From positions 18,910,001 to 18,974,000 of the forward strand of contig NC_090342.1 of NCBI RefSeq assembly GCF_035084215.1: a stretch of 64,000 nucleotides of DNA, written 5' to 3'. Source of the DNA: Heptranchias perlo. Lineage: Eukaryota. The notes beneath the pieces were generated by a model. It had not been told where the DNA came from. It made no database searches and saw only the letters and a list, made by a program, of their open reading frames with translations. Both the position numbers and the translations under genes were made by a program. Numbering within the stretch: position 1 is the stretch's first letter; the number at the start of each line of letters is the position of its first letter. This document shows, piece after piece, positions 29,349 through 57,909 of this stretch.

Positions 29349-29649
29349 GTAAGAGTGCGACACGAACGTTAACTGACCGCTCCATCATCATACATGTTCT
29401 TTCAGTTGGTCATTAAAGGTCAATGCGATGTTTAAGTTGAATTACTGTCAAGGGAAATGATGAAAGATTTTGTTTTTGTGAAAAGAGAATAGGAAACATT
29501 GGGATGGAACATTCATAATTGGTAGGTAAGAGGCTCACTGTACAGGGAGCACTGAGCCCACGGGACTGCTCAAGGCATTGCGTACCCCGGTGGATCAGGA
29601 AGAAATAACCAAGATCTTGTTTGCAAGTAAGAAATTCCTCACAAAATAA

Positions 29650-31427: not shown

Positions 31428-31557
31428 ATGCCTCTACAGTCAAGAATAAGAGGCTACACAGCCTGGGCAAATGTGCGATGTTCATCATTTAACCAGCAGC
31501 TCAATAATGTGTTTACAGATCTATTCTCAGACACTCATTTGAAATCCTTGTTAGAAA
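31428..31557 (+). CDS. Unnamed CH-CH-ankyrin protein, coding exon 1 (exon starts at 31382)
   Basis: Acceptor tttatttgcag; MPLQSRIRGYTAWANVRCSSFNQQLNNVFTDLFSDTHLKSLLE resembles CH helix A and the DL.DG..L..LLE motif; donor a|gtaagc, phase 1. Confidence 0.75.
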
Positions 31558-31842
31558 GTAAGCTCAAATAAATCTACTTTAAAAAAAAACTCTGTAGCAT
31601 TTGACTGTAGGAGATGGTGGGTCCCTTGTTTTTCTATATATGCTGGGTTTATACCTTTCACTGGTCAAATATTTGTGTGGAAAATCTTAAGTACAACTCC
31701 GCAATGGTTTTTGCAAAGCTGTTAGAAACAATAACTATCAAATCAAATTTAATCAGCTACGTAACTGTGTCTAGTGTATAGATCACACCATCATGTAGGT
31801 TTTTGTGAGCAGTAAATTGGAATGGCAGGTTGCAGTGTAATT

Positions 31843-32230
31843 CATAGAGTCATAGAGTCATACGGCACGGATAGAGGCCCTTCGGCCCATCGTGTCCGCG
31901 CCGGCCATCAAGCCCTGTCTACTCTAATCCCATATTCCAGCATTTGGTCCGTAGCCTTGTATGCTATGGCATTTCAAGTGCTCATCCAAATGCTTCTTGA
32001 ATGTTGTGAGGGTTCCTGCCTCCAGAACCCTTTCAGGCAGTGAGTTCCAGACTCCAACCACCCTCTGGGTGAAAAAGTTCTTTCTCAAATCCCCTCTAAA
32101 CCTCCCGCCTTTTACCTTGAATCTATGCCCCCTTGTTATAGAACCCTCAACGAAGGGAAAAAGCTCCTTAGTATCCATCCTATCTGTGCCCCTCATAATT
32201 TTGTACACCTCATCATAATTTTGTACACAA
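31843..32230 (-). mobile_element. 5'-truncated CR1 3' end
   Basis: EVYKIMRG...KNFFTQRVVGVWNSLP...GYGPNAGIWD; (catagagt)n tail; tcataattttgtacac duplicated at the 5' junction. Confidence 0.88.
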
Positions 32231-32430
32231 TTCATAGAAATAACTTTGAAAAATAAAGATGGAGTCAGAATGTGCTGATAATTCCCACGGTTGCCTGAAT
32301 ATTGAACATATAGCATTTTATATAATTGTTCCTGGCACTTTTTTGTACAGAAGTACATAAAGAATATCTGAAGTACAGCAATAGAAGACATGACTTTTGT
32401 TTGTGTAATATTGTGACAAATACTCTAACA

Positions 32431-32492
32431 TTCGGTAAAGCCAACACAGCAGCTAAACAACGTTGTTTACTTGCTGCGTTGGCTTTACCGAA
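32431..32492. repeat. 62-bp loopless palindrome
   Basis: 31-bp arms, complementary at 28 of 31 positions. Confidence 0.9.
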
Positions 32493-32634
32493 GTAAGGAA
32501 ATATGTAATACTCCTGAAAGATCCATGTAATTGTTTTATATTTAATGAAAGCAAGCTTTTAAGCCGTATTTTCCATTTAACTGCTAATTACTGATTGAGA
32601 GTTACTGAAAATTTTCTCTGTGCTTCTTGGTTAG

Positions 32635-32804
32635 GTTTTACCGGACAGTCACCCAAGAATATGTACTGCATGGCTAGGCGACAGACATACCGGCAACTTA
32701 TTGCACAGTTTGAGTTGCTTTTAGTAGAATTGCGGACAGCTGGCATCATACCCGAGGACAGCGAAATTAACTGTGACATGATTGCCAAGAAAAATACTAA
32801 ATGT
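32635..32804 (+). CDS. Unnamed CH-CH-ankyrin protein, coding exon 2
   Basis: Phase 1 to 0; SFTGQSPKNMYCMARRQTYRQLIAQFELLLVELRTAGIIPEDSEINCDMIAKKNTKC; donor gtatgt. Confidence 0.75.
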
Positions 32805-33739
32805 GTATGTATAAGGGTCTCTTTCAACTTTACCTCTCTTGCTCGGATGACACTACATGAGGATTGTCTGAATAATTGATCTTTTGATAATTCTAATAAT
32901 CATATTATGTTACCTTTCAGTGCTGTTGGGTTGTTTAAAATAGTGCGTAATAAGCAAGTTATACCTGAGAGGGTTAATTGCGCAGCCTGTGCAATTCATA
33001 GTGATCGTGGATCAGGAAAGCGGGACTACAAACTCGGAAAAGTAGTAAACAGTGAGGATAGTAGCAGACTTCAAGAGGACATAGGCAGACTGGTGAAATG
33101 GGCAAGTTATAGCTGAGAGGGGTAATTGCGCATCCTGCGATCCCAGTGTAGGAGCTGAGTTCACAGGGATGGTGGATCAGGGAATCGGGATTACAATACT
33201 GCAGCTCTGTTCCCTGTGAGCGCGGCTCCCCTCTGGGGGTACGGGACCGTGGAATTACCCGTCAGATTTTCAATATCAATTTGATATCAGATTTGGGATT
33301 GGCTCTATAACCGTAGTGATCTCTGCGATTTGAACAGTGTGGGAGCAACTCAAAGCAATAGTTTGGCTTTGCACCACTTGCAGTATAATTGTGCAATGTA
33401 AAATTAAATTAAGTTTTAAAGTTTCAAAACTACCTTTGCTTTAAGGTTTTATGTTCCACTGGTTCTTTTCTAACAGTAAGAATTTCACTGGCATTGAGAT
33501 TCCATGATTGAGACGGTATATGTAAATGTAAATTGACGCAACTCTAACATTCCCTGACTGGAAAACAGTGCAAAGGCAGCTCACACCACTATTAGTTTGT
33601 AGCTTTATCACCCCATTTGCTTCCATGTGAAGCTGCTTCGAGTTGCATCAACTGGAAAGTCTTCGTATTCCTCAGAAGTTAGATCCATTCTGACTCTTGA
33701 GTGCACTGAAGCCAGGAGATGGAAGATTCCCTTCAGACC

Positions 33740-34100
33740 AGTCATTGTGTTCAAATCCCTCCATGGCCTTGCTTCTCCCTATCTCTGTAACCTCCTCCAG
33801 CCCTACAACACTCAAAGAACTCTATATTCCTCCAATTCTAGCCTCTTGTGCACCCTCAATTTCCTTTGCCCCACTATTGGTGGCGGTATCTTCAGCTGTC
33901 TAGGCACTAAGCTCTGGGATTCCCTCCCTAAACCTCTCTGCCTCTCTAACTCTCTTTCCTCTTTTAAGACGCTCATTAAAGCCTGCCTCTTTGACCAAGC
34001 TTTTGGTCAGCTGTCCTAATATTTCCTTGTGTGGCTCGGTGTCAAACTTTGACTGATAACACTCCTGTGAAGCATTTTAGGAGTTTTACTACATTAAAGC
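33740..34100 (+). mobile_element. L2-type LINE 3' fragment
   Basis: VFKSLHGLASPYLCNLL...LWDSLP...FKTLIK..LF and a ctacattaaag tail; similar copy at ~51215-52025. Confidence 0.75.
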
Positions 34101-34170
34101 TGGCACAGGCACGATGGGCCAAATGGCCTACTTCTGTTCTGTGAGATTGTATGATTATTTAAATGCAAAC

Positions 34171-34203
34171 TGTTGTTGTTGTTGTTGCTGCTGCTGCTGC
34201 TGC
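34171..34203 (+). repeat. Compound microsatellite (GTT)n(GCT)n
   Basis: tgttgttgttgttgttgctgctgctgctgctgc. Confidence 0.9.
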
Positions 34204-36104
34204 ATTAGCTGCACTATATCTCCAGCCTAATGCAAAGCCACATTTTAAAAGTGCCCCGGCAGTCCATTGGACCGTAAACTTAATGTTAGGAGAAAGTGAA
34301 TGCTTCCCCAGCATTGAAAATTAGCTGCTCAGGGAACGGAGCTCTGGGCTTACATTCAAGCGAACATGCAAAGTGCTCTTTTATGGCTGACCCCAGTGTG
34401 ACCCACAGCAAATGTATAGTCTGCAATGTATCTCTGGTCTGCCAACTGTACATCATACTCCACAGTTACCAATCTGAGACTGGTGGCTGCAGTACAGTTG
34501 CAGCCAAAAGAGGTAGTGATGTCAAATCAGCACCTGGATATAACAGACATCACAGCCTATGAGAAAAGGGTCATTTAGTGCTTCTATTTTTGCTTGGTTC
34601 ATTCCCTAGTGCTATGTAGTTAGGACAACTCCCAGATATTACAAACCTTCATTTTGATTCCCTCCTAAGTTCTCATTCTTTAAATTCACATTTTCCGTCC
34701 AGAATAGGGCTGGAAGGCTGCTGGTTCCATTTTTCAATTAATTCTTTATATTTTAAAGAGCTGGTATTTAATTTTATAAGCAGCTTTAATCAGCTAATGA
34801 AGGAGAGAAGAGACCAACAAATAGATTGATTAGACTGTAAAATGTCCAGAATTGGAATTGCCAGGTCATTACAAAGATGAGATAAAGGTGCTGAGAATGG
34901 CTAAGGGAAGCTGCACTTGTGGCCCATCATAGATTTTTCAACGGAGTCATTGGTATTTACTTGAAGTATCTGCAATTTATGCAGTCCATCACTCCAGCTG
35001 GAGGGAATATGATTCTTGAATTACAATCCCGTAGGACATTTTGTATTATGATGTTATCCATCTGTCACAAATCAAATGAACTCCCACAAGTTACTTGAAA
35101 CTACAACAAGCTCCACTCACCTACTGTGCTTCATAATTGACTTCCTCCCATCAGACAGTGTTCCATTTGTAAGGTACTTTTGTGGGAACTATCTTCCATC
35201 TGCCCATGAACATTAGTCTTTTTCATTAACCCTTATTTCCATATTACCATAGCATATTTTTATACTTATAATACAATCATTCATTCTTATAAGCTTTCTG
35301 AAATGGGGGAATCTTGGATGTAACTTTACAAACTGGAGTTTCAAGAATTTTTATTCATTTTCAGGATTACAATTTGAACCAAAACCCAGTAAACACAGGA
35401 ATAAATCAGTGTTAATTAGCAAATAATTCCCATTTTTTAAAATCATTGTTCTGACATACATGAATCTTTAATGATTCACATATTTTTGAAGTTAAAGTTA
35501 AAAGGTAATCTGGTAAACAGGGTACAGCAGATTTGCAAACAAATGGATTTGTTTATTTGCACATCTCTGTTCACATTTTGCTTTCTGACTGATTCCCTCT
35601 CTCAATCTTATCTGCCAGCTGGCAAATATATTGTTTAGTTTTGTGATTTAGTCTCTTCCTCATCCTACTTGGTTTTCCAAAGAATAAAGCAACAGTTCCT
35701 AAGGTCAGTTGCAATTTTAAAAAATAAAACTTTACAACCATCAACATCCTCTTAGGTTTTAATTTTAGTAAGATTATGATGGATTCTTATTGTGTGATGA
35801 CATTTCTTGTTGGCTAAATTATGTTCAAATAAATGGATAGATTTCACATCTGTACCAGTTATGTCTGCTTCAACTTTGGAAAAGTGGTGATGAACCAGAG
35901 TTATTTTGTGCTTCAGTTTTGCATTACAGAAAATGTAATTTAATATTAATATTTTATTGATGGCAAGTTATTAAAATGATTTATTGTATTATTTTTCTTC
36001 AATGAATCACCTGATAACAGTGTTATTTACTGATTATTGACAATGAATGCTTAGATTGCACAATGACTTACGCTGTGAGGAGTGCATTTTGATTTGTGCT
36101 CTAG

Positions 36105-36215
36105 ATAGCTGAACTGTTATGGAAGTTGATCGTTCATGACATCCGGTTCACCTGGGAACGATCAAGCCAACTGCAGCTCGATAACGATAAATTGGTCTGC
36201 TCTGTTTGTTTCAAG
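36105..36215 (+). CDS. Unnamed CH-CH-ankyrin protein, coding exon 3
   Basis: Phase 0 to 0; IAELLWKLIVHDIRFTWERSSQLQLDNDKLVCSVCFK supplies the CH terminal helix (L.LLW.LI); donor aag|gtacaa. Confidence 0.8.
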
Positions 36216-36729
36216 GTACAAGAGGACTATTCACACTTTCCAAGTGCTCACAGCTACACATTCAACATATTGTTACTAGACAAAAGGGATATAATCTTTT
36301 TGTTCTGGAATATCTAATCTATTCATTTTTAATGGATTTTTAAATTTGGTTCAATGAGGTTTGGAATTGCTCTTGAATATAATGTTGCAATATTTCTGTC
36401 TATTCCATCATTTTCTACTTGATACAAACTTTGTTGATGGCTTGAATCAAAATTAGTACATTTATTAAAATATCATTGCCAACAACATGCACATTACACC
36501 AAGAAAAATAGAATTTTGATACTTTTTGTCATTTTGTGGAAATCTCATATTTAAAAAAACTTTTTATATTTTACATGACAAAACATATATAAAAATAGCT
36601 TTGAAGCAATTCGCTGAATGCTGTTAAAGGCACAGTGATATATGAATCCTGTAATTACGTTATTATTTTCTGTGGTAATTGTGGAATAGTGATCCAGTTT
36701 AAGGAGATTGTGTTATGTTTTGGATTCAG

Positions 36730-36889
36730 TGGACCCCAAAGGTTCAATCACCAGAGAAGGAAAAACAACAAGCAAAAACACCTCTGTCCCTTTTTGCTGG
36801 TCTTGAAGCCTCATTAAGTGCTACAAAAAGATCTTCTGTCTCTTCTCTGATTGAATCATTATATTTGCAGGATTTTGAGCCTTTTCCAG
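36730..36889 (+). CDS. Unnamed CH-CH-ankyrin protein, coding exon 4
   Basis: Phase 0 to 1; WTPKVQSPEKEKQQAKTPLSLFAG...YLQDFEPFP; donor cag|gtaatt. Confidence 0.75.
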
Positions 36890-36989
36890 GTAATTAGTAG
36901 CAATATTAGATTTTAAGAAAGTTTACTATTTTTTTCTTGTTATTCATATTTTATTCATTGATAAATTGAAGTCTTCTTAACAAATTGAT

Positions 36990-37343
36990 GCTGGTTTTTA
37001 AAAATCCTGCTGTATTGTGCTTTATTAGAAACCGTTTGCAGCTTGTCAAAAATGCTGCAATCTGATTGTCGGAGGAGAGCGATCGATCCTCTCGCTTCTC
37101 CCCTGGATCTTAGCTTCGCTGGAGTTAACGCTGGGCTCTTCTCTGCTTCCTATAAGAGGAAGTGCCCGCAGTAAAGACCGCGGTAAGTTACTAGGTTAAT
37201 ATAAATCAATGGAGCGGCAAGCACCATTGGTTCGCCACTCAGAGCAATTTCTGGGCCGGTCATTCTCTCCCCTCGACCAACCAGATTGCAGCATTTTTGA
37301 CACGCTGTGAATGGTTTCTGCAAGCTGCAACATAAAATCCAGC
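36990..37343. mobile_element. MITE with long imperfect inverted arms
   Basis: gctggttttta...taaaatccagc ends; agaaacc...tgtcaaaaatgctgcaatctg is mirrored by cagattgcagcatttttgaca...ggtttct. Confidence 0.65.
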
Positions 37344-37647
37344 AAGTGAAAGGTACAGCACTAAAGTCATTTGTAAAAACAGTTATAGACAGCGAAAAAA
37401 AGAGAGGGTAAGAAATATTCGAATTAAATAAAAGAGACGGAAGGAAAAAGTAACAGTGGTGAACATTGTTGAGCTCACTGTTCTTTTTTAAGCAATTTCT
37501 GGGTGTGTTCAATGTCCAGGCGATAATTGGCACCAGGAGCAGAGCCTCACAAAAATTACCCTAATGCTCCTTTAAGAGAAATGCTAGTTGTCCAAAGGTT
37601 AAAAAAAGATATAAATTAATTTTTGTTTTATTCATTCTATCTCTAAG

Positions 37648-37754
37648 GTCGTGAGGTAGCTAAGGTCTTTAACAAGAAGATTCCTAAAGAAGGCTGGGAT
37701 TACTATCCTTCCGCTGTTGAATGCATTCTGGATCTCATTAATGTCCATCTACAG
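37648..37754 (+). CDS. Unnamed CH-CH-ankyrin protein, coding exon 5
   Basis: Phase 1 to 0; GREVAKVFNKKIPKEGWDYYPSAVECILDLINVHLQ (start of the second CH-like domain). Confidence 0.78.
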
Positions 37755-38368
37755 GTGCTTTTATTAAACACAGAAGGGATTGTTTTCTCATATAGTCACA
37801 GAATACAGTGTCAATACCATCACTGAATTGATATTGTAAAAAATAATTACTGTTGTAATATGAATGAGACTACAAAACTGAACATTGGTGTCCACTTTTA
37901 TAAAAAGGAAAGTTGATCCCAAGTCGATGTTAAATTGTAATAAGATTTCTCTTTTAATGTTCTTGATTATACCATTATATTAGTTGAGGCCAATTAAGGC
38001 ATTTTTTGGCAAAAATATGTGAGTTACTCATCAGTTTAAGCCTGCTCAAAAAACAGCCAAAGTCATTTTTAATTTTTATTTTTGTAGGGCCAAGGAGGTG
38101 CAGGAGTGCTCCTCCTGAGCCCACAAAAAACTCCTTCCTGCTGTCAGCCCATGCTGCTAGACTCTGCTCCTCCCATGTGCTCCCCAGTCCCTCCTCCATA
38201 ACATGACTTTTACCAAATTTATTATATGGAGTGTACCACATGCTTATGTAGCAATGGTTTGATATTGACCATATTAAAACATACATTATTGTAAATGAAC
38301 AGATATGGTATAACCAGATTCAGCACAAAAAGTTGGAGTTCACACCTGCTTTTCTGTCATTAATATAG

Positions 38369-38496
38369 ATAGCATCTGAAGGACAGAAACTCCATGTGAA
38401 AGAGCTAGCTGACTTGGTAGATAGTCATGTCTGGTGTTATCTGGTTAATTCCTTCATGCCTGGCACATTCATTGTGGAAGTACTGCCATATGACAG
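38369..38496 (+). CDS. Unnamed CH-CH-ankyrin protein, coding exon 6
   Basis: Phase 0 to 2; IASEGQKLHVKELADLVDSHVWCYLVNSFMPGTFIVEVLPYD (CH-like DL.D...C.LVN.F.PG). Confidence 0.78.
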
Positions 38497-38581
38497 GTCA
38501 GACTAGTCACTATAACTTACAGCTTGGCTTATTATTTCTCTCCACTCTTATTTTATTCTTCAAATATGATTAATTTCATAG

Positions 38582-38663
38582 ATGGACTACAAATCTTGCT
38601 TTAAAAACAATGGAAGAATTTCTTTGTACCTCAACCTCTTTTACGTCACAAGATCTTCTTGAG
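38582..38663 (+). CDS. Unnamed CH-CH-ankyrin protein, coding exon 7
   Basis: Phase 2 to 0; RWTTNLALKTMEEFLCTSTSFTSQDLLE; donor gag|gtaaca. Confidence 0.8.
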
Positions 38664-38772
38664 GTAACACATGAAAACTGTAAGGGAAAAAAGCAGAAAA
38701 CGTAATCTTTTTTATTGCTATCATTTCATGTTTTTTAAAAATTAACTTTTCATTTTTTTTTTCTTTTTAAAG

Positions 38773-38862
38773 GCAGATTCTAAGACTCTCTGTGCCTATA
38801 TGTGTTTTGTCTTTATGTGTGGCTACAAGTTCAAGCAGTCCAGAGCAGTTACAAACTGCACT
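38773..38862 (+). CDS. Unnamed CH-CH-ankyrin protein, coding exon 8
   Basis: Phase 0 to 0; ADSKTLCAYMCFVFMCGYKFKQSRAVTNCT (CH2-like D.K....Y); donor gtgagt. Confidence 0.8.
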
Positions 38863-38869
38863 GTGAGTA

Positions 38870-39500
38870 GAATCATAGAAATTAGTCATTTGGCCCATCG
38901 TGTCTGTGTGGGTTTAGTTAAAGGGCTATCTACTTTAATCCCATTTTCTTGTCCTTTCATTGTGAATTTTTATATTTTGCTTTTTCAAATACTTTTAATT
39001 ATATTCTAGTCTCTGCATCAATATCCACTTGTGATAAAGCATTCCATGTTCTAATGATCTTTAGTGTGAGACCTATCTCTTCTTAACTATTGATAATACT
39101 GAATCTATGCCGCTTATAACCAGTGGAAATGATCTTTAACAACTTACCCTGTGAAAATCTTTCATAGTTTTGAAAGCCTTTACTAGATCTTTCTGTTACT
39201 GTGAAAAAGCCCCAGTTGAGCTTTTCTTCATAACTGCAAACTCTCATTCCTTGTGTTCAAATGAATTTTTGCCATACCCTTTTTATGGCTCTGATATTCT
39301 TCCTATAGTAAGGTGCTCAGAGCTGCACACAACACTTTAACTGCAGCCTAACCAATAGCTGTACAAATTCAATGTCTTTTTTTTGCATTTATGTTCAGTG
39401 TCCATATATGTAAAAGACTCAGAATCCCATTTGCCTTTTTAACGACCTTTCCTGCCTGTACTCCAGCTCTTAAAGATCGATGTTTCTGCACCCCTACATC
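38870..39500 (-). mobile_element. Old CR1 3' fragment followed by a Harbinger-type MITE remnant (~39500-39986)
   Basis: KVVKKANGIL remnant; the MITE ends in gaatttctccccc like the 80-712 element. Confidence 0.6.
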
Positions 39501-40231
39501 TGACAATTTCCAGCCGGCTCCAACGCCAAGCTGGCCTGCTGAAAGGTCCTGGGGGACGGGGGAGGGGGTATGGGGGATGGGGGAGGTGAAGTCCAGGGGG
39601 GTGAGCCCAGGCCAGCAATGGCCCACATTACTTTTGTAGAACCAGCAGGAGCACTCCTGCATCTTTTGGATCCACAAAACTATAACTTTGAAAAAGTCTC
39701 ATGGCCATTTTTTGAGCGGCCTTCAGAGGTCCCTTTACGGACAGCTGGTTAGGCTCCTTAAGACCTGGTACAACTAGGCTGAGCCAATGTGGCACAAGCA
39801 TTGGGTTCATATAACCGCAATAGGACCCCGATTTGCATAGTAAAGCGTCCCTCAATATGGCATCAGGCAGGCCTTGGGCATCACTGGGGCAGCCGTGGTG
39901 CCCACCCTGTCCCACCCCAATTTTTAACTCCTGGCTGTCCGTTTTTCAGGCGCAAAATGGATGGCTGCGAGTAGAATTTCTCCCCCTATTAATCTTATGC
40001 CGGGAATTTCCTCTGGGTTCTCCCGATCGGCTGCTTTAGCTTTGGTGGAAATGCCGGGTAGACATATAAATGGGATCTGTATGAATCGTCATTAGGATGA
40101 CCCTACCCCCCCAGGAGATACCCAGCTTTTCTTTTTAGTGATTGAGCACAACTTGATTAACACTGTAAACATACTTCATACAAGTAATGGAAACTAAACA
40201 AATTTAAAAGAAACATAATAAATAATACTTA

Positions 40232-41203
40232 TAAGACCATAAGAGATAGGAGCAGGAGTAGGCCATTCGGCCCCTCGAGCCTGCTCTGCCATTCAATGAG
40301 ATCATGGCTGATCTGATTTTTACCTCAACTCCACTTTCCCGCCCATTCCCCATATCCTTTGACTCCCTTGCTGATCAAAAATTTGTCTAACTCAGCCTTG
40401 AATGTATTCAATGACTCAGCCTCCACAGCTTTTTGGGGTAAAGAATTCCAAAGATTCATGACCCTCTAGGAGAAGAAATTCCTCCTCATTTCCATCTTAA
40501 ACGGGCAACCCCTTATTCTGAGACTATGCCCCCTAGTTTTAGATACCCCCATAATGGGTAACATCCTCTCAGCATCTACCCTATCAAGTCCCCTCAGAAT
40601 CGTGTATGTTTCAATAAGATCTCCTCTCATTCTTCTAAACTCCAATGAGTATAGACCCAACCTGTTCAATCTTTCCTCATAAGACAACCCTTCCATACCC
40701 GGAATCAACCTAGTGAACCTTCTCTGAACTGCCTCCAATGCAAGTATGTCCTTCCTTAAATAAGGGCACCAGAACTGTACGCAGTACTCCAGGTGTGGTC
40801 TCACCAGCACCCTGTACAGTTGTAGCATGACTTCCCTGCTTTTATACTCCATCCCCCTAGAAATAAAGGCCAATATTCCGTTTGCCTTCCGGATTACCTG
40901 CTGCACCTGTATGTTGACTTTTTGTGTTTCATGTACAAGGACACCCAGATTCCTCTGTACCGCAGCATTTTGTAGTATTTCTCCATTCAAATGATATTTT
41001 GCTTTTTTATTTTTCCTCCCAAAGTGGATGACTTCACATTTTCCCACATTATATTCCATCTGCCAAATTTTTGCCCATTCGCTTAACCTGTCAATATCTC
41101 TTTACAGACACTTTGTGTCCTCATCGCAACTTGCTTTTCCACCTATCTTTGTATCATCAGCAAATTTGGCCACAAGACACTCTGTTCCTTCATCCAAGTC
41201 ATT
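40232..41203 (-). mobile_element. 5'-truncated CR1
   Basis: 197-aa ORF 40466-41059 (KCEVIHFG...RPHLEYCVQFW...MRGDLIETY); (taagacca)n tail. Confidence 0.9.
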
Positions 41204-41639
41204 GGTAAAGTCCCTTATTATGTTGAAATGTTTCAAATCATTTCACACAATGAATTACTTGTGAAATGCAGTGACTGTTGTCATGTAAGGAAATGCAACA
41301 GCCATTGCGCACCAGAAGCATCGCACACAGGGCAGTGGGAGAATTTCCCGCTCGTCTTTGAATAGCGTTTAACATTAAGGCTGAGACATAAGAACTGGTA
41401 CATGTCGTTGTCTCCAAAGTGCAACATTCTCTCAGTACGGCATAGGCATGTCAGCCTAGGTTGGGCACTCAATTCCTATATGGAAGCTTGAACCCACATC
41501 CTTCTAACAGAGGTAAAGGTACATTCAATTAAATCAAGATGACAATGGAAACCTTGGATATGAGCATTAGATTAAGGAATTCAGTGTGCTGTGTTTGTTG
41601 AGCTGTTTTTGGAATAAATTACTTTTTCCTTTGTATCAG

Positions 41640-41766
41640 AGAGAGATGTACCTTTCAATGAATAAGTTAGACTCACAACTGAAAACCTTCACTGTCCAAG
41701 CCCTGGAGCCAGATCAGTCTACTCAAAGGAGCGAGTTACAGAAGAAGCTGGAAGCAACTAAGAATG
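41640..41766 (+). CDS. Unnamed CH-CH-ankyrin protein, coding exon 9
   Basis: Phase 0 to 1; REMYLSMNKLDSQLKTFTVQALEPDQSTQRSELQKKLEATKN (coiled-coil-like); donor g|gtaaat. Confidence 0.78.
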
Positions 41767-42527
41767 GTAAATGGACTGTCCATTTACATCATAAAAGCAC
41801 AAACTGCATACTGTTCATCTTGTATATATCATTTTTGTGTACAGTATTATCTGCCGTTGTAGACTTTTATTCTGAGTTCTCAATAGTACAAAATAGGCAA
41901 ATTGAATTAAAAGGATTTGTAATTGTCAGACAGAGAAGTGTGAGGACTTGTGTATAGATTTGTTTAGCTGTGTATGTTATGATGTTTAGATTGTACAGTT
42001 CTTTGAGCATTATGCTAGATGACCATCTGCATGATTCTATGCCAATGCTGCTCAAAGTAAAAGTATGGAATTTATAACATTTGATATATGAAGTGAAGCA
42101 TGGATAAATAATATATAATTTGCCTTGCATATAGCGCATAGTTTCTGTAACACTTTCCCTCAGGCTTATTGTTCCCATATGACTGGCTCCACCTCTGTAG
42201 ATTCTCAGCTCCCAAAATATGTCTCCAAGGTGGGCGATGCTATTCTTCACAACACAACCCACTTGATCCCTGTGAAAATTGGTCCTCTTGCCTGACACAA
42301 GCTGCTCAGAGGCTCTCTTCAAATTATGACCAGATTTTCAGGCTCAACAGGAAACAAAATCATTTTTCTGGTGTTTTATTACAATTTTTGAGGATTTAAA
42401 AAAAAAATTTCCAGGCCAATATGTTGTACAATACATTGCATAGAATAGCATATCTGCTTACTGTCCATGGGCAATGGCACAGGAAATCCGCTGGTATTGA
42501 ATTAAAAATTAACCATTTGTGTTGCAG

Positions 42528-42666
42528 AGCTGAGCTGGCTTCATGCCTCATATGACGTGCCATTCTGTCAGAGTTGGAGTGAGCACGCCTACAAGATACA
42601 AAAACAGACCAAGGAGACTATTTCTCAGAAATTGACAGAGCGGTTTGAGACAGTTATTGTACCGAG
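42528..42666 (+). CDS. Unnamed CH-CH-ankyrin protein, coding exon 10
   Basis: Phase 1 to 2; ELSWLHASYDVPFCQSWSEHAYKIQKQTKETISQKLTERFETVIVP; donor ag|gtaatg. Confidence 0.8.
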
Positions 42667-46663: not shown

Positions 46664-46810
46664 CGGTCCGGGAGTTTACTCGGAGCTGCTCCCGCTCCAC
46701 CGCCGTCACTTCTCCAGGAGTATGGTGGGAACCCCATATACGCCGGTAATCGGGGTTTCTGCCGACGTTATGGCGATGGAGCGGTAGCTGCTCCGAGGTA
46801 ATTGCTGGTC
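46664..46810. mobile_element. Short palindromic MITE
   Basis: ctcggagctgctcccgctccaccgcc is mirrored by ggcgatggagcggtagctgctccgag. Confidence 0.6.
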
Positions 46811-49214
46811 ATTATTTTGTAAAACAAACCTCAGGCTAGAACAATTACACTATTGTTTAATTGTGTTTGTTTACCTTATGGAGAAACCAATGAAGTGGGA
46901 AAGATGAAAAACTATAAATATCTTAAAGCTGAGTCCAAGCGTTTTCACTTCATGGGTGCATAAGTGCATACCATGGTTGCTCTAGTCTTTCTATTAATTT
47001 TATATATATTTTAGGTTATTGATACTAACAGATCTGGCTGTTCTAATTTAGGGTAAACCCATCAATGAGGCAACAGTACAACCCTTTCCAAACCTCCAGG
47101 CCAACAAAATTTCAAACAGCACAAACCAATGAACCAGAAATATCAGTGCAAGTGGGATTGAGTTGCCAGGGCTTCAAGGACCAGATTGCAGGACTCAAGG
47201 ACTGCAAGTGGCTCACAGGCCACAGTTAGGATGTTTATGTCTAAAAAAAGAGTCTTACTCTTAAAAGACACACAATTTTTACTAACACAAAGCTTTTAAA
47301 ATTATGTGGTTTTTTATTGCTTTTGGATGAGGACAAGATCAGACTTGGCTGTGATGACTCTATAGTCAAAAAGGTTGTCAACACTGTCCAAGCTCACATA
47401 TGAAGATTGGTCAATTGGACAAAGTACCAGAGAACTGACGGCAGTTGTAGAACCATACAGCATGATCAGTCAGCACCTTCAAGAAAGGCAGGGAGAAAAC
47501 TATGTGTGTACAGTTTTTGTTCAATTACCTTTTGGATCTCAGGAAGAAATTTCAAAGAATCAGGCAGATGCATATCCACCTCCCCACTAAATTACCAGAG
47601 ACTGGACAGAATCATGACCATTGCAAGGTTAGGAACATAGGATAAGGTGTATCGTGATTATTCTAATCCCGAAGATAATTCATGAAATATAGTTTGCAGG
47701 AATTGTTAGGGTATAAATCATTTTATGCATGTAATCTAAAACAATAATCAAATGAAATTGTCAATCTGTACCTGTTACTATTAAGATGTAATCTTGAACG
47801 TATAGTGCGTCAAAGTAATGTGTTGGTATTATATACCTGCAAACATCTAGTGCCGTCTATGGTGGTCTAATGCTCCAGTGCCTTCTTGCACAGCCAGCAG
47901 CAACATCAAAGTAAACTTTCTGCAGTCTAAGGCTGTGAAGAGCTGATTAACTGAATCTGCTTGATCACTGGCCTCAGCTATTCCGGCAAATTTACTTGGA
48001 ACAAAAAAAGAAAATGCTGGAAACATTCAGCAGGTCAGGCAGCATCTGGGCAAAGAACAGATAAGTTAATTTTTAAAATGTGGACCCTTCAGCAAACATA
48101 CGTTTACTTTGATGTTGATGTGAGCTGTGTAAGACCCATGCGTCAGGAGGCAGCAGCATTTTCATAGCACGAGGGCAAAATGTTATTTTAAACTGATTTC
48201 CCTCTCTCCTCCCCCACCTCCACCACCTCCTCCCACATGGCAAGTTTTTACTTTCAGTCATGCTGACTGGAGGTGATGACAAATGGAAACTGAAAACTTC
48301 CCACACAGTGGAAGGAATGGAGAGAAAATCTGAAGTGAGTAACCTGGACTACTCTCACATGCCTTCCAGTAGCTACTTAAATACCAGTATTGGCAGATGT
48401 CTGGGAGTAGATAATCTGGCAATCCCTTTAGGGAAATGATGCACATTTCTAGTGTAGGAATGGAGGGGGAAGGATTCTCAAGCAGAAAAAAAAGGAGAAA
48501 ATATAAATTGGAGAAAACAAAAATTAAAATGTTATCTGTTCGGCAGAGCCTATTTAAGGCAGTGTGCTTGCAGTGTATGGATGTCACAGTGATATCCTGG
48601 GGGGCATTCCCAACAGCAGGAATTGCTGTCAGCGCTGTCAAAATAATCTTATGCCTAGAATAAAAAGGATGGCGTAGTGCATCTTTTAGCACAGGACTCT
48701 CTGCTGACTGTAATAGTCTAACAGTAATTAAACCTTTCTGTAAATCAGAAAGGTTTATTGTGATGGTAAAAGGGTGTACTTTGCTCGCAGGCAAATGTTA
48801 ATTGTTACTGGTAATGCTTGAAGGCGTTTGAATAGATTTATTGAGTCTGGAGAAACCTGTGTTCATTTCCTGGGTATCTGTAATCTGCAATAAAAGCAAG
48901 AGAATCCATTTCATAATTTTTATCTTCATATGGGGATTTACAATTTGTTGTCTATGGCAGATATTGTCTGTTTCACTGAGAAACAAATTTCAATTACAGA
49001 AGTGTCTCCTATATTTGACAAGACATTTATTTTGTCCATATATCCATTGTTCATATGCAGAATTAGTGTTACTGTACATTGTAACTAGAACATTTCACTC
49101 CCTACCTAGCTTGGGGATGAGCTGAGAAGCAAAGCAATTTTCCAGCTTTGTGTAACATCATCATACTTATCCCTCCATCTCCAATCTTCATCTACTTTGG
49201 ACCTAAGAAAAATA

Positions 49215-49928
49215 GATCAGAATATTTTCTAAAGAGTGAGAAGCTAGAAACTGTGGATGAGCAGAGAGATTTAGGGGTCCAAGTGCAAAAATCACAAAAA
49301 GCTACAAAAAGTAATTAAAAAGGCTAATGGAATGTTGGCCTTTATCTCAAGGAGGCTTGAATACAAAAGGGTGGATGTTATGTTACAGTTATATAAAGCT
49401 CCGCTTAGACCCTAATTAGAGTACTGCGTTCAATTCTGGGCACCGCACCTCAGGAAGGATATGTGGCCTTGGAGGGGGTGCAGCGCAGATTCACCAGAAT
49501 GTGCTAAAGAGTTAAATTATTAGGACAGGTTGCATAGGCTAGGCTTGTATTCCCTTGAATATAAAGGATTAAAGGGTGATCTAATTGAGGTGTTCAAGAT
49601 GATTAAAGGAGTTGATAGGATGGATAGAGAGAAACTATATCCTCTGGTGGGGGAGTCCAGAACAAGGGGGCATAACCTTAAAATTAAAGCTAGGCTGTTC
49701 AGGGGTGATGTCAGGAAGCACTTCTTCACACAAAGGGCAGTGAAACTCTCTCCACCAAAAAGCTGTTGCGACTAGGTTAATTGAAAATTTCAAAACTGAG
49801 ATTGAAAAGTATTAAGAGTTATGGAACCAAGGCATGTGGATGGAGTTGAGATACAGATCAGCCATGATCTAATTGAATGGTGGAACAAGCTTGAGGGGCT
49901 GAATGGCTTACTCCTGTTCCTATGTTCT
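49215..49928 (+). mobile_element. Decayed CR1 3' fragment
   Basis: RLGLYSLEY..LKGDLIEVFKMIKG...KHFFTQR; tgttcctatgttct tail. Confidence 0.85.
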
Positions 49929-51214
49929 GTCTATTAATTCTTTATCTGCTACTCTGCTGTGTCTGATCCTTTGCAATCTGCTACCACTCTCACCTATACC
50001 AAGAACTGTTTCTTCCTCCGTGCCAAGATATCTTTTATAGATTTTTTTAACATAGATTTTCTCTGGTTAAAGTTAAAGGAACTATTTTTGGCCAGTAAAA
50101 AGTTAATTCAGACAAGTGAAATAAAATTTATGATCAATAAATCAACATAAAATAATCAGTATTGATGTATTGGCAAGGAAGTAATTTTGGGGTGAAGTGT
50201 GAATATTTTATTTGTACGTAGGATGTAGTGATGCTGCCAAGGCTGCATTTACGATCCATCCCCAATTACCCTGAGAAAGTGGTGGTGGGCCTTCTTTTTG
50301 GATTGTTGCATTCCCTCTGCTGAAGGTGCTCCCTATGATGATGGTAGATAGGGAATACCAGAATTGTGACCTAGCAACTATTAGGGAATGGCCGTATGTG
50401 TGCGAGTCAGGATATTGTGTGACTTGAAGGGGAACCTGGAGGTGATGTGTTCCTATGACATTGTAGCTCTTATCCTTCTTACTGGTAGAGGTGATGGGGC
50501 TGAGAGGTGCTGTCAAAGTAAGTTGGCTGAGTTGCTACAGTGCATCCTGTAAATAGTACATTCATAAAGGGCAAAGTTCACCCAGGCTGCTAGCAGCAGT
50601 GCCTGGGAAATTCATACCCCATTCCAGAAGATGGCTGGGCAATCCGGGAGGGTTGGTAACCCTAAAGATGCTGCTTCTGGCACGCACTTATACACTTCCC
50701 ATTGAACAAGGATTGGTTACTCACTTTGATGGTAATGGAGTGAGGGATGTGCCGGACCATGAGGCTACAGTTTGTGGTGGTGTACAGTCCTGCTGCTACC
50801 AATGGCCCGCAGCGTTTCATGGATGCCAATTTTTGGGCTGTTAGATCGATGACACTACACAATGGAGGGTGCCCTCATTGGTGTCATTATGATGCATCTA
50901 ATCATACATTGAGGAACATGATTTTACAGTACAGGGGCACATAGATTCACAGATTTGGGTCCAGCGTCTCCCCCCACCCCCTTGCCATTCCTTCAAAGGT
51001 TTTAATAAGGTTTCACTTGAACCATGTGATAGAAACCTTATTTTATACTCTGTGCTAGGAAATATCGTAAATTATTCTCAGATGTATATATTTTCACTGT
51101 TGGACTTAGCATTGAATTGTGTTTAAGGACTCTGTTAATGGGATGTTGACATAATGTAACTATAATGTTGTGCTGCAGACCTCCAATATACTTTATCTCA
51201 GCTTACTGCCGATT

Positions 51215-52025
51215 CGCTATTACCATGGATGAGCCAAAACTGTCACTAGTTAAATGCTGGGAAAACCAAAGCCATCATCTTCAGCTTCCAACAAAATTTA
51301 TATCCCTTTGTTCCTTTCTGTATCCTTCTTCCTGAGCTTTCATTCAGGCGAAACAGGGCAGTGTGCAACCTCAACGTCCCATCTGAGCCTGAGCTGAGCT
51401 TCAAAACCCATTTCCTATCTACCACCAAGACAGCATAATTTCGGTAACATTGTCTATCTTCACCCCATTTTACCCCTCTACTGCTGAAACCCTTAGTTAT
51501 TATTTTGTTCCTTTAAGACTTGACTTGTTGAATGCTTCCTTGTCAGCCTCCTGAGCTCCTCCCTATATAAATTCCAACTTATCTAAAACTTTGCTGTCTG
51601 CATTCTATCCTGTACTAGGTCTTGGTCATCTGTCATTCCTGTCCTCGCTGATCTCCAATTGCTCCTTGCCCCTCAGTGTACCAAATTCAAGTTCCTTGTT
51701 CTCATTTGCAAATCCTTCCGTGGCCTTGCCCCACCCTACCAGACCTACATCCCAGCCCATTCTACCATCTCCACCATGGTCTTTCAACTCTGAACTCCTG
51801 AGCATTGCTCACTTGGTGGCAGGGCTTTCACCAGTCATCTTGGCCCTGCCCTCCCTAAACCTCTTCACCTTGCTACTTCCTTCCCATCCTTTAAAAACCT
51901 TTTCAAAACCTACTTTTTGACTGTTTTTGGCCAAATTTCCAAAAGCCTCCATTTGTCTGTCTCCTGCATGAAGTGTCATAGAATATTTTTATTACATTAA
52001 AGGCAATATACAAATGCAAATTATT
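51215..52025 (+). mobile_element. Decayed L2-type LINE fragment
   Basis: LNAGKTKAIIF-like segment, aaatccttccgtggccttgcccc and a tacattaaaggcaatatacaaatgcaa tail. Confidence 0.65.
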
Positions 52026-52466
52026 GTTGGTAGCATAAAGGATCTGAGCCAAATGGTATTGTGTATCTCTGTTCTTCTAACTTCTTTAAAGTACAAGATT
52101 TATTCCGGAATATAAATTTTGCGCATAGTATAAACCCTGTAGTCTGTAGCTATATCAATGCAAAAGCTCACCTGTGAAGACTGTGGTTTCACACCTGTAT
52201 GACTTTGTGCTGGCAAAGTGTCAATGTGGGCATGAATTGCATTTGAATTCTCCTTCAAACACTGACATTCAGAGATACCTGTCCATGGACCACCCTTGTG
52301 GTAGTCATCTTGAAAGTGTTAGTTAGAGGCCTGGGAGAAAGTTGTGTGCTTTCTGTCTCAGTCAAGGAATGGTACATCTTATGGAGAAGACTTAAAAGAT
52401 AGGAGACAGAGGGAGAGCAGGAAGTGATTGGAATTTTTTTTGATTTTTGTTTCTTTTATCTTTAAG

Positions 52467-52636
52467 AAATATGTCCATGAATGATCTGTGCTTGTCGTTG
52501 GCAATTGCTTTCACCCAGACCAATGGTTTCTATCTTGCAACTGGGAAGGAGAGCTTCCCAGAAAGTAGAAAAATAGTTCTTCAAAATAAGAAGACTAAGG
52601 AATTTACTGAAGATTTTTCAGGGTATCAAACTAATA
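52467..52636 (+). CDS. Unnamed CH-CH-ankyrin protein, coding exon 11
   Basis: Phase 2 to 1; RNMSMNDLCLSLAIAFTQTNGFYLATGKESFPESRKIVLQNKKTKEFTEDFSGYQTN; strong polypyrimidine acceptor, donor gtaagt. Confidence 0.78.
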
Positions 52637-53189
52637 GTAAGTAATAGTCACAAGTCAATGTTTGCCTATATAATACATTTATACCTGTTGGTAGACAAAT
52701 GAAACCTGCACATTAAAGGACTTGCAGGATAACATGGAATATGCTTAATTTCTTTATTTTCCATTTCTCAGTTAGACATTAACATTTTATTGTATCTTGA
52801 TGGTACATAATTTAAGGTCTATAATTTAGTTTTAGTCTGGATCGTACTTAATTTATTGTTTCTGTACTTTCCAATCAGACAGATTAAAAAGGGCTCCAAC
52901 TCAAACTTGCAACGAATGCCGATTTCTAAATTAGCCAGTCACATTTCAAAAAGGGGCATATTATACTACTACGTAGGTACAGCTCAGGGATTTGTGCAAT
53001 ACTTTTGTAAAGATTTTTTTTGCAGTTTCATTTTGCAATATATGCATAACATATTGTCTGGAAATGTACAGTGCACCGTACCTTAAACTTTGAATGTCAG
53101 ACACTGATATCTGCTTACTCTCACTGGATGGAAGATCAAGGGATGAGCCTGTGCAATTTTCCAATATGTGCTCCCAGTGTGCAAGGCAC

Positions 53190-55176
53190 TATGCCAGGAC
53201 TGCAGAAGTAGAAAGTTTACCCTTATGTCCCTTTAATTGAGTGTTGCATCCTAACCTTCCCCCACACTGTGCTGATCATGCTTACCTGGAACCACAGCAA
53301 CTAAAGTACATGGGGCCTTTTATTCTACCGGCACAGGTTGGGGGGTTTCGTGGTGGAGCATCCTGAGAGAGGACAGCATGTGCCTCTCCAATGGCACTAC
53401 TGCCACTCGCACGGGGCTGTGCCTCAGCACTCCCGCTGCTCTGCGTGAGAACAGAATGTAGTTGTCATGTTTGGAAGCCCCTATCCATGCTTTCCTTCAC
53501 ACTTAGCAAGTTGGGGACGATGGTGGACGCCAGAACCTTAATGGCAGCAATCTGAACTTTCATTGAAGCTGTCAGAGCTGTCAGTAGAGGATCCATAAAT
53601 GAGGATCCTGCAGTACTGCACATAGGGGTGACGTCACGCTCCATAGTTGACTGCATTGATTCATGCCATGTGCAATGATCCCACACAAGTTGGAGGTGGA
53701 CTCCTCCACATTGCCTGACATTGTGTGCAGGCTTCCTGGCAGGCAATCCAATGCATCAAACAGTTGGTGCAGAACCACTAATCTTTTATAGGCTGGATCC
53801 AGGAAATTTTCATCTGTGCTCTCTGCAGCAGAGGTAGGATGTGAGTACACCCTCTGTCAAGCTGGTACCTGGGCCATCCTTTCCACCTGTCCTTGCTCCT
53901 GCCCACTTGTGCTGTGTGACTATCCCAGTGCAGACTCCTCTAACTGACTCTCTGAAGTACACGAGGTGCCAATTTATGAGCTGTGCTTATAATGGTAAGA
54001 TCGAGTGACAGTGCATCTTTGAAAGGACTGTCCTCCTCTTTCTTTTCTCCGACTGCGTCCATGATTTACAATGAACCTGGAAAGGGAAGAGAGGGATAAG
54101 GGTTAGCACTTAGTCACAAGGGTTAGCAGAAACAGATGAGTGCCAGCTCAAAGCAGCACCATGTTGTCATGCAAAGTGTGTGTGAGAGAGAGTTCAATCA
54201 GAAGAGCAAAGGAGGGAAAGATGGCCAAACACCCTGTGGAATTTATCTTCTGGCTTAGCCACTTGCCATGCATCTGGCCCACCCTCTGCCCACTACGTGA
54301 ATGGCAGCCTCTTCTATTGAGGACAACACTTGAAATGATGGTGGTCCTCCTCCTCTTTACATCTGTTCCCTCTTATTGTGTGCCAGCTTGTCTTACAAGA
54401 AGAAAGGGAGTGTGTTAGTGTGTGGCCTGCTGAATTGTGGTGAAGATGTGTGTGTTAGGGCAGAAGAGTTTGGATAGTGCATGAAAGAAGCTGCAAGTGT
54501 GTGAGAGTAATTGTGAGGACAGTAGCCGATGTGGAGAATTCAAGTAGCAGCAGAAGGAGGTACAGTGAAGTATGCTGCTTTGATCGGAGGAGAGTGATGG
54601 GAAGCAGGGGGAGGGTAGGCTTGTGATTGCTGGGGCTACAGTGATCCAGAGCTAAGCAGAGAGAAAGAGGTGTGTAGGAGTCTTACCTTAAATGCTCTGC
54701 TCAAATCATTGAATTCTTTTTGACACTGTTTCCAAATCCTGGGAGCAATGCTACATGCATTCGCCTGCTCAACCGCCTCTAATCACTATTGTGATTTGCC
54801 TTGCATCCTTCTTCTGTTAGCTGGAAATAGGTCCTCCTTCCTCCTGCATACCTTCTCTACAAGGACTTCTACAGCGTTGTCTGAAATCAAATCTCATATT
54901 AACTGTTATCTGTTCCAAGTTTTAAGTTTGAAGCATGCAGCATGGGCAAAGTACACTTCGCCTTTAAGAGGTGTAGGCTGTCTTTAATTGGGTCAATCCT
55001 GCCTGAATTCCCCCTCCCCACCCCACCCAATGGGTGAGCTGCCAATAACTAGCGCGAGTAGCTCTGGCAGCTCTCCTGAAAACGATTCTTGCCTCTCACC
55101 CACCTCACTGGCTGGGGGCCACGGATCCTCCATCCACTTCGCGCCTGTTTTGGGTACAGGTTGAAAATCTCCCCCC
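53190..55176 (-). mobile_element. Decayed PIF/Harbinger derivative with a Myb/SANT-like gene remnant
   Basis: Minus strand ISDNAVEVLVEKVCRRKEDLFP...PRIWKQCQKEFNDLSRAFK|gtaag (~54686-54890, with stops); gggggagattttcaa-type terminus at ~55161-55176; left boundary uncertain. Confidence 0.6.
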
Positions 55177-55436
55177 ACATATTCATAAGAAATAGGAGCA
55201 GGAGTAGGCCAATCGGCTCCTCAAGCCTGCTCCGCCATTCAATAAGATCATGACTGATTCTTTTTTAAAAACAAAAAAGTAATAAGTTTGATTATATGCT
55301 GTTTTGTCAATATTTTTTTATTGTTTTCATGTGTTTAGAAAAGTTAACATGTTGTATTTTTTGAAATTGTGTAAGAATTCTATGAAAAGAATTGATTATG
55401 TGCAATGGCTAACTTTCATTGTGTTTTTGTACTCAG

Positions 55437-55513
55437 TATCAGTTCGAAAGATCTTGAAACTTGCATTAACTGGTATGGTTGAGATTGACCCAATTGCTTA
55501 CCCAGATTATCAT
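55437..55513 (+). CDS. Unnamed CH-CH-ankyrin protein, coding exon 12
   Basis: Phase 1 to 0; ISVRKILKLALTGMVEIDPIAYPDYH; donor gtaagt. Confidence 0.78.
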
Positions 55514-55606
55514 GTAAGTACTATATTGAGTTAAACTCCTCATTTTTTGTTGCATATTAATTTTGTTATACTACATTGACTAAAGTTCATTTTGTTTTGT
55601 TGATAG

Positions 55607-55656
55607 TTATTTTTTGAAAGTAAAACAAGAAATAAGAAACTGAAGATGAACATGTG
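55607..55656 (+). CDS. Unnamed CH-CH-ankyrin protein, coding exon 13
   Basis: Phase 0 to 2; LFFESKTRNKKLKMNM; donor tg|gtaagt; needed to keep the frame between exons 12 and 14. Confidence 0.75.
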
Positions 55657-56837
55657 GTAAGTGCAATAATAATACTGGTAATCATTTGTATCTCAGCCTT
55701 GAATTGTAATTGAGATTAAACTTTCAAAGTATGTTCCTACATCAATGTACTTTTGTTTCATAGATAGGATAATAGGTGTTATATGGTTACTAATCACTTT
55801 AATGAAGGTAAAGGATGTTGGTGCTGAGAAGTGATACAGTTTTTCCACTTTTGTCAATGTGTGTTACCTTCAACCTTCGACTGTAGCATTCTAAATCTTC
55901 CTTTTTGCATATCAGCAATCCTTATGGCCTCACTGGGTTAGATTCCTAATTTAGTCAAAGTTTTGTGCTGTGCCTGTATTGACTAGGACTTGGGTTGAGA
56001 CTGCCTAAATTACTTTCACATGGAGCCTTCACAACCAACAGAGAGAGGAGACTTCTATCCCCTCATTCTAGGCTGGATTCAATCCTAGTTCCAAGAGGCA
56101 AAAGGCCAGGGTCTCACCCACTGCACCACCCATGTAGTTTCTAATGATGCACATCTGGCTTATCCAGATTAATCGAATGCAGAGTATGCCTGACCTCATG
56201 TCTTGGAATGTGATGCATTGAGAATGGTAATTGATACAAGATGGGAAGGTCTGGACATTTCCCTCCATGTTCTTTGGCAGTGGTTGAAAAATTCTCCCTT
56301 TTGCAGAGTTTATTGCCACCACAAAATATAAATTACTCCAAACTAAAATTTGTCCATTGGCATTGGATTGGGCATGATGACTCTGAATGCCATGTGGAAT
56401 ATTATATTATCTACCATTACTTAATGACTTTCTGCCCATTGATTATGAATGAGTGGTAGAAGAGTGAAGAGTCCCTGAGAATGCCACATAAATTGCAGGG
56501 TCTGCAGGGGTTGGAATAACATCATAAAGTTTGAAAAAGATTAATAGTGTTGAATTCCTGGAATGAGAGAAAGGGAATATGCAGACTTGATAGGCTGAAT
56601 GGCCAGTTTCTGAGCTGTAACAATGTATGAAAATATTTCCCAAGGTTACCAGATAAATATGGATGAGAAGGCCATTTGGTCCATCTTTGTTCATCCATCC
56701 AGAAAGACGACATAATCATTGTGGCATATAATCATTTTTAAAGAAATTCCAGGGTTTTCATTTCCTCAACTCTCCTTTGAAATCCTTTCCTCCTTTGTGT
56801 GAAAAAAGGCTTCCTAAAATCAGTAGTAAAATTGTTG

Positions 56838-57018
56838 GCCCTGAAATTCCACAGGGCTTTTCTCGAAGTAACGATGGGAGATTGACGGAGCCACTAGAGA
56901 GATTGTGTAAATGGCTGTTTTTGGCCAATTCTGCTGTTTCTTTTTCTCTGTGGATTCCACTGATCTCTCACTGAAGTTATGGTGGGAAGCGGGGAGAGTC
57001 CCAATGGAATTTCAGGAC
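56838..57018. mobile_element. Short MITE inserted in an old CR1 fragment
   Basis: gccctgaaattcca ... tggaatttcaggac terminal inverted repeats. Confidence 0.6.
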
Positions 57019-57713
57019 TGTCTTTTACTAGTTTGAATCTGTAGTCCCTTGCTCTACTCTCGCAATTTAGTTTGAAGTAATTTTACACTTTCCTTCCTGT
57101 TTACTATCTCTATACCTAAAAGATCACCTCTCAGTCCTCTTTGTTCCCAGGTTTCTCCAGCCTTTCCTCGTACCTCAGATCTCTGGAACTTGGGATCAGC
57201 TTCATCAAGCTGGATGCAAACTCAGTTGATTTTATTTTGTTTCTCTCCCTTTGATTTTCTTCTCTTATCCCTCGACTCCTGAAGACTCATACTGCGTGTG
57301 TATGAGAGTCTGGAGAGTCTAGTCCAATCCTGCCCTCATTCAGCGCTGATCCATATTCAATAACACCAGGAGGTTACTGGGTAGCGTCTAGGAGCAGGAA
57401 CCATGGCTAGTTCATCCATCCCATCCTTAACCTGAAGAGAATGGAAGACTTTCTGTTTTTTACTGCTCAGTACCATACTATGAGTGCATTTAATCAATGG
57501 GTTATTGGGAATCCTGGCTAGATTTTTTAATCTGTTCTTTAAAAGGACTGGGTCAGGATAGATGAATATGTTGCTTATTAATACATGGATCTGTGTATCA
57601 GGTGCATAATTTATGTACACTCTAAGGTATTGTGGGGGATTTGAAGTTTACCCAATACCTTTATTAAAAAAATTGTGCTCTTATGAAAAAACTAAAAGTA
57701 ATTTTTCTAACAG

Positions 57714-57909
57714 CTTTTTGTACCAAGTATTTCCTGGGAGCCCAAGCCACTGGCAACGAACTTTCTTCCAAGCTGTGAGAAATGGTGACTTCCAAGTTGT
57801 TAAAAATATGGTTCAGTTTTTCAAGGATTCACATCTTGATGTTATCCATTCAAAAGAATCAGCCTCTGGCAATGGAACTTTGCACTTGGCATGTCGAAAG
57901 GGCCATTTT
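57714..57909 (+). CDS. Unnamed CH-CH-ankyrin protein, coding exon 14 (ankyrin repeats begin; gene continues past the window)
   Basis: Phase 2 to 0; CFLYQVFPGSPSHWQRTFFQAVRNGDFQVVKNMVQ...SGNGTLHLACRKGHF shows the ankyrin consensus (G.T.LH.A...GH); donor gtaagt. Confidence 0.82.

Follow-up and report, generated by a model that had tools for sequence, protein, structure and literature searches.

A 26-exon gene of the shark Heptranchias perlo joins a predicted actin-binding CH1-CH2 module to ankyrin repeats in a family older than animals

We analyzed a 64 kb window of the Heptranchias perlo genome (the whole stretch G000:C21:18,910,001-18,974,000; shorter coordinates below count from its first letter) and a gene on its + strand whose product begins with two calponin-homology (CH) domains and ends in ankyrin repeats. 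We found that the gene is real, intact and expressed, and that its architecture is new within the CH1-CH2 class and older than animals. Its orthologues are already predicted in public annotation (RefSeq/UniProt), mostly as 'uncharacterized' or 'hypothetical' proteins with gene models named 'uncharacterized LOC', and have apparently never been described as a family; a search of the full-text literature, with subscription journals outside its coverage, found no paper on it. Judged by its sequence, the product is predicted to work like a spectrin-family actin-binding adaptor, yet it is not an actinin, spectrin, dystrophin, parvin, tankyrase or ankyrin. We propose, as an evenly balanced judgement, a one-chain adaptor that holds F-actin through CH1-CH2 and partners through its ankyrin repeats, and that is probably an RFX-controlled component of ciliated cells.

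A preliminary description of the window had joined 14 exons into an intact gene. All 14 have exactly the lengths first noted, all 13 introns have GT..AG ends, and the spliced exons translate into 579 stop-free codons that include the quoted protein motifs, with QDLLE/ADSKTLCAY straddling the exon 7/8 junction. The description fell short in extent, for these exons make up the 5′ half of a gene that is intact and about twice as long. When shark homologues were searched by tBLASTn in the 120 kb that follow, 12 more coding exons came to light past the window (G000:C21:18,974,864-19,026,572), and the whole gene has 26 coding exons that encode 1043 aa with a single terminal stop. Because the 1043-aa product is 79-84% identical to five other, independently annotated shark proteins, it is not a product of chance. 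One exon of the family-specific domain matches a single place in the genome, which is consistent with a single-copy gene. A pseudogene or artefact is ruled out by the 26 open exons and by spliced transcript contigs. These contigs come from one study of one related organism (runs X1-X4, labelled 'RNA?', available as contigs only) and, together with profiles and homologues, they define the following features:

About 29245-29525 (5′ end approximate), + strand: non-coding first exon, from contigs X1-X4, with donor GTAAGA.
31382..31557, + strand: coding exon 1 with its ATG at 31428, start of CH1, from an X1 contig over 31380-31557 and the CH1 profile.
32635..32804, + strand: coding exon 2, CH1 core, from splice sites and homologue matches.
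36105..36215, + strand: coding exon 3, last CH1 helix with the conserved Trp106, from contigs and alignment.
36730..36889, + strand: coding exon 4, disordered CH1-CH2 linker, from contigs and the confidence of an orthologue's model (predicted local distance difference test, pLDDT).
37648-37754, + strand: coding exon 5, CH2/neck helix region, from contigs, Pfam CH and an alignment with actinin CH2 and neck.
38369-38496, + strand: coding exon 6, same region and evidence.
38582-38663, + strand: coding exon 7, same region and evidence.
38773-38862, + strand: coding exon 8, same region and evidence.
41640-41766 and 42528-42666, + strand: coding exons 9-10, a weak Enkurin-like hairpin and a third helix, from contigs, model and profiles.
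52467-52636, 55437-55513 and 55607-55656, + strand: coding exons 11-13, family-specific alpha/beta domain, from contigs, profile and fold searches.
57714..57909, + strand: coding exon 14, which completes the middle domain and holds the first ankyrin repeats, from contigs and homologues.

The splicing predicted from the letters is confirmed by the related species' contigs for exons 3-14, which they join, with GT..AG ends at 9 of the 13 introns. Junction 8/9 is joined with imprecise ends, and junction 10/11 is bridged, by record arithmetic, by a single 1276-nt X1 contig. Junctions 1/2 and 2/3 are absent from the listing, and our only basis for inferring them is how long one X1 contig is (403 nt); exon 1 itself is covered in X1 and X2 contigs. 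No exon was covered in runs X5 and X6 of organism B.

We judged the CH fold by profiles and by the helix pattern of an AlphaFold2 (AF2) model. By profile, the pair is a type-1 CH followed by a type-2 CH of the utrophin/dystrophin/actinin type. The first 42 of 51 PDB matches to a CH1-only profile (best E 3e-7, with an alignment across profile positions 8-110) all come from the CH1 of utrophin, plectin, dystrophin, MACF1, filamin, actinin and spectrin. Of the earlier label, actinin/parvin type, the actinin part therefore stands and the parvin part does not: a parvin is just the 43rd match (E 0.035), outranked by 42 spectrin-family CH1 chains. The product resembles parvins in being an adaptor-type protein with two CH domains, and parvins are not known to have ankyrin repeats. 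With a profile of the whole N-terminal part, 36 of 39 matches are CH proteins (best E 2e-7), and CH1, CH2 and an actinin-like neck helix appear in the N-terminal order of utrophin, dystrophin, alpha-actinin, plectin and filamin. Pfam CH was found in 25 of 29 members, over its curated cut-off in several invertebrate ones; a profile-profile comparison of CH1 with CH2 was not significant. The AF2 model of an orthologue (mean pLDDT 84) has helical bundles at both CH positions.

As in spectrin-superfamily CH1 domains, helix A keeps its T-x-W-x-N pattern (Thr11, Trp13, Asn15) and the last helix its LLW, where 93 of 96 rows retain Trp106. At the residue that aligns with the CH2 latch cation, 53/96 rows have Met and 22/96 have Lys or Arg, and the H. 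perlo gene has Lys. Unlike the actin-binding domains (ABDs) of that superfamily, the new family has a disordered CH1-CH2 linker of about 80 aa (median 80 aa; pLDDT < 50 at orthologue-model residues 142-190) and an altered DGN position. It also differs in what follows, with no Pfam spectrin-repeat, Ig or EF-hand rod and instead a hairpin, a family-specific domain and ankyrin repeats.

The preliminary description had also proposed an order of CH-CH, coiled coil, unknown domain and ankyrin repeats, which Pfam, profiles and the AF2 model bear out, with a helical region in second place. The hairpin, a helix-(L/F)P-helix some 50 aa long, can be aligned with the Enkurin domain of ENKUR and ENKD1. Unlike theirs, it lies within the protein and not at its C-terminus, spans roughly half of the Pfam model and stays below the Pfam cut-off; homology is a candidate explanation. 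Pfam Enkurin (PF13864) was found in 4 of 19 members (best E 0.0014; best 19.5 bits against a cut-off of 23.6), and an Enkurin-domain protein tops the 18 PDB matches to the hairpin profile (E 0.03). The genome's second Enkurin-family gene, which we take to be ENKD1-like, scores 23.2 bits on that profile, a value reached by none of 2000 heptad-preserving shuffles; the first scores 11.4 bits, reached by 6 of 2000. A spectrin repeat, tried as a reading of this region, is unsupported: there was no spectrin-repeat structure among the 18 PDB matches to the helical-region profile, one of 19 members touches a spectrin-like Pfam model (E 0.025), and what lies between CH2 and the middle domain is just three helices.

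The middle domain itself is a family-specific alpha/beta domain of about 115 aa with a weak beta-grasp-like core. It gave no match in a Foldseek search, no PDB sequence match to its profile up to E 10, nothing meaningful in Pfam and, for the two parts queried, no usable match in the ESM Atlas; the full AF2 model retrieved ankyrin proteins only. The C-terminal half, as in ankyrins, tankyrase and other ankyrin scaffolds, consists of ankyrin repeats over the Pfam cut-off (PF00023, 6-8 stretches, E about 1e-40). Unlike ankyrins and tankyrase, the family members scanned have no significant Pfam match to a PARP, SAM, ZU5 or death domain. A fragment of tankyrase or ankyrin is excluded, since the family forms its own clade and lacks their catalytic and adaptor domains. 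After the ankyrin repeats comes a C-terminal module (residues ~966-1015, exons at G000:C21 about 19,009,800-19,026,570).

We collected the family by word-based searches (26 and 99 matches, each from about 7,990 scored candidates) and by a full HMMER scan of 50% representatives (28 new family representatives, 20 looked up by name), and obtained 95 near-full-length members. Outside vertebrates they occur in a choanoflagellate (UC4), sponges, cnidarians, an acoel, Macrostomum, rotifers, molluscs, annelids, nemerteans, a brachiopod, a bryozoan, echinoderms, hemichordates, amphioxus and tunicates; within vertebrates, in lampreys, sharks, a skate, sturgeons, gar, coelacanth, caecilians and frogs. 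The suspected antiquity of the gene is thus upheld from choanoflagellate to amphibians, but its suspected status as a cartilaginous-fish relic is not. No amniote, teleost, arthropod or nematode is among the named matches, a result of hit lists only, from which Xenopus, lungfish and chimaera are also missing and in which 8 representatives are unnamed. The suggested loss in mammals agrees with the matches, as an absence from hit lists alone. No clear named orthologue is among the matches, as the preliminary description had expected for vertebrates, and the few members with borrowed ankyrin names ('tankyrase-2-like', 'Ankyrin-3', 'Ankycorbin') owe them to family fragments. The family tree, a quick IQ-TREE run of 38 rows, broadly tracks animal phylogeny and places the H. 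perlo gene inside the cartilaginous fishes. Shark and cnidarian proteins are about 40% identical over 1000 aa. The parts most conserved among invertebrates are CH1 (62-79% identity) and the C-terminal module (70-87%, the highest in the family), as expected of surfaces that bind conserved partners. Conservation of the C-terminal module drops in vertebrates alongside that of CH1, and the module may contact CH1 or have a common partner with it.

Starting from the gene structure, the splicing in a related species, the orthology, the domain order and the CH1/CH2 type assigned by profile, we predict binding and location as follows. CH1 would grip F-actin, judging by the CH type and by CH1 conservation in invertebrates. 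The long disordered linker, and a latch position without a cation in most members, would favour an open, higher-affinity state, by analogy with utrophin, whose ABD affinity was raised by an unstructured linker according to the part of PMC6938246 covered. The ankyrin repeats and the conserved C-terminal module would bind a membrane or ciliary-base partner. The Enkurin-like hairpin, together with a promoter site, would point to the ciliary base or the apical actin of ciliated cells:

29133..29146, + strand: RFX X-box-like site that fits the strict consensus exactly and lies upstream of the 5′-most contig end by about 100 bp.

This X-box is the sole exact strict match in the window (shuffle mean 0.44) and one of 2 in 184 kb, differs from the vertebrate consensus by one mismatch, and would fall within a given 300 bp by chance with a probability of about 0.002-0.003; the consensus is that printed in the portions covered of PMC10530576 and bioRxiv 2020.08.21.260547. 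The observed/expected CpG ratio is 0.83-1.04 at 29.0-29.5 kb. Published work on related components was covered in part. In those parts, the enkurin fragment of ENKD1 localises to the centrosome (bioRxiv 2021.07.20.453048), and several ciliary CH proteins are RFX-dependent in choanoflagellates (PMC10530576 supplement). In the covered part of the S. rosetta RFX-mutant table (PMC10530576), CH and ankyrin labels stand together on no row among the matches listed, and the orthologue is not identifiable there. The main text of a sea urchin/anemone/choanoflagellate ciliome paper (bioRxiv 153437), as far as covered and with its supplements outside that coverage, mentions neither ankyrin nor calponin.

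Two sets of observations weigh against the proposed adaptor of ciliated cells, the first of which concerns cilia. The ciliary tie draws on the X-box, the Enkurin-like hairpin and the distribution, each of them weak. For the X-box there is a single site in a single genome, and such a site turned up somewhere within 64 kb in 29 of 100 shuffles; the Enkurin likeness is weak, and scores are inflated by coiled-coil hairpins. Ciliated protists gave no named match besides the one choanoflagellate, and motile cilia persist in mammals, for which the hit lists show no apparent orthologue. The gene could instead encode a cortical actin-membrane linker of a general kind, not specifically tied to cilia, in which a spectrin-family ABD is joined to ankyrin repeats that bind membrane proteins. 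The strongest evidence, the CH1/CH2 type and the ankyrin repeats, concerns actin and scaffolding only. We nevertheless regard this linker as unlikely, given that the proximal promoter has an X-box, that the hairpin resembles Enkurin, and that no named match came from arthropods or nematodes, which are not known to have motile somatic cilia.

The second set concerns the actin-binding end in sharks. Shark CH domains score 15-20 bits against a Pfam cut-off of 26, one of four full-length shark proteins has no Pfam CH match, and the family consensus has altered KTFT and DGN positions in its actin-binding sites. Shark CH1 (69% identity among sharks, equal to the hairpin) is among the least conserved folded parts, compared with 76-82% elsewhere, and is 38% identical to invertebrate CH1. 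X3 and X4 contigs splice the first exon directly to exon 3, so that most of CH1 is lost and the first in-frame Met lies inside CH2; X3 contigs apparently also skip exon 6, whose joints are missing. Intron 13 (55657-57713) is covered in X1 and X3 contigs that run into exon 14, which could reflect intron retention or an internal start yielding an ankyrin-only product; an ankyrin-only isoform is annotated in another shark (P0002). The spliced 5′ untranslated region carries 7 upstream ATGs with short upstream open reading frames (ORFs), and the start context is weak. In the listed X1 pieces, the related species differs at 25/925 exon positions versus 135/2754 intron positions, and of the 7 exon substitutions listed, 6 are non-synonymous. 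Because of this small contrast and the many non-synonymous changes, purifying selection on the exons looks moderate at best. Constraint on the actin-binding end seems to have weakened in sharks, where splicing can remove it.

Among these observations, the CH1 erosion in vertebrates, the contigs that skip CH1 or cover intron 13, the upstream ATGs with the weak start context, the many non-synonymous changes among those listed and the ankyrin-only isoform favour a second alternative, that the CH pair of sharks and other vertebrates no longer binds actin and that the gene survives mainly as an ankyrin scaffold or is drifting toward the loss inferred for amniotes and teleosts. We consider it improbable: all 26 exons are open, Thr11, Trp13, Asn15 and Trp106 are kept, five other cartilaginous fishes have full-length annotated proteins, and exon 1 is present in two of the runs. 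A microtubule- or centriole-associated protein, acting through its CH domains or the hairpin, would suit the hairpin, the X-box and the RFX-dependent CH proteins of choanoflagellates, but is very improbable, as no EB1/Ndc80/SPEF1-type CH is among the 51 PDB matches to the CH1 profile, the absence of PDB matches for the middle domain means that no orthologue is among the modelled axonemal proteins in the PDB copy searched, and ENKD1 binds microtubules by its N-terminal part only, according to the part covered of bioRxiv 2021.07.20.453048.

The neighbouring genes put the locus in the expected place, between CCDC59 and a liprin-alpha gene on the PPFIA2 side. A CCDC59/TAP26-type gene lies upstream (11642-18906, + strand), its last exon matching Pfam rRNA_processing, and about 260 kb downstream lies one of the genome's four liprin-alpha loci (G000:C21:19,285,363-19,306,353, + strand); this order is the human CCDC59-PPFIA2 order. 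Head-to-head with the CCDC59/TAP26-type gene is an ORF at 11103-11327 (− strand) with no Pfam match, a putative METTL25-like first exon. Between CCDC59 and the promoter of the studied gene stands an apparently intact CR1-like long interspersed nuclear element (about 23850-28530, + strand) with 5′ tandem repeats, a 315-aa ORF1 with a GDSL esterase domain, and a 1016-aa ORF2 with endonuclease and reverse transcriptase. A Penelope-like fragment (about 21960-23040) has a 179-aa ORF with a weak GIY-YIG match and, by eye, inverted terminal sequences. A GC-rich, repeat-like stretch at about 61700-63700 contains ORFs of 170-270 aa, two of which were scanned and gave no Pfam match; it is probably a decayed DNA transposon.

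Tandem CH1-CH2 actin-binding proteins form a small and well-catalogued set, to which the new family adds a pre-animal architecture; it is among the better conserved uncharacterised invertebrate proteins. Its middle domain, which has no family or clear fold match, is a structural target of its own. The family seems to be missing in mouse, human, zebrafish, fly and worm, which would account for its lack of a name. More tentatively, the family may descend from the common ancestor of animals and choanoflagellates as an overlooked, RFX-controlled link between the base of the cilium and actin (the collar or apical network), combining a spectrin-family ABD with a hairpin resembling Enkurin, a new domain derived from the beta-grasp and ankyrin repeats, kept for >600 million years and independently lost in arthropods and nematodes, in teleosts and in amniotes. 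Such losses, if true, mean that it was missed by every standard genetic model. If the link between actin and the ciliary base is true, the family would offer a direct way to test how the ancestral collar or ciliated cell came to be built, and would show what teleosts and amniotes have dispensed with.

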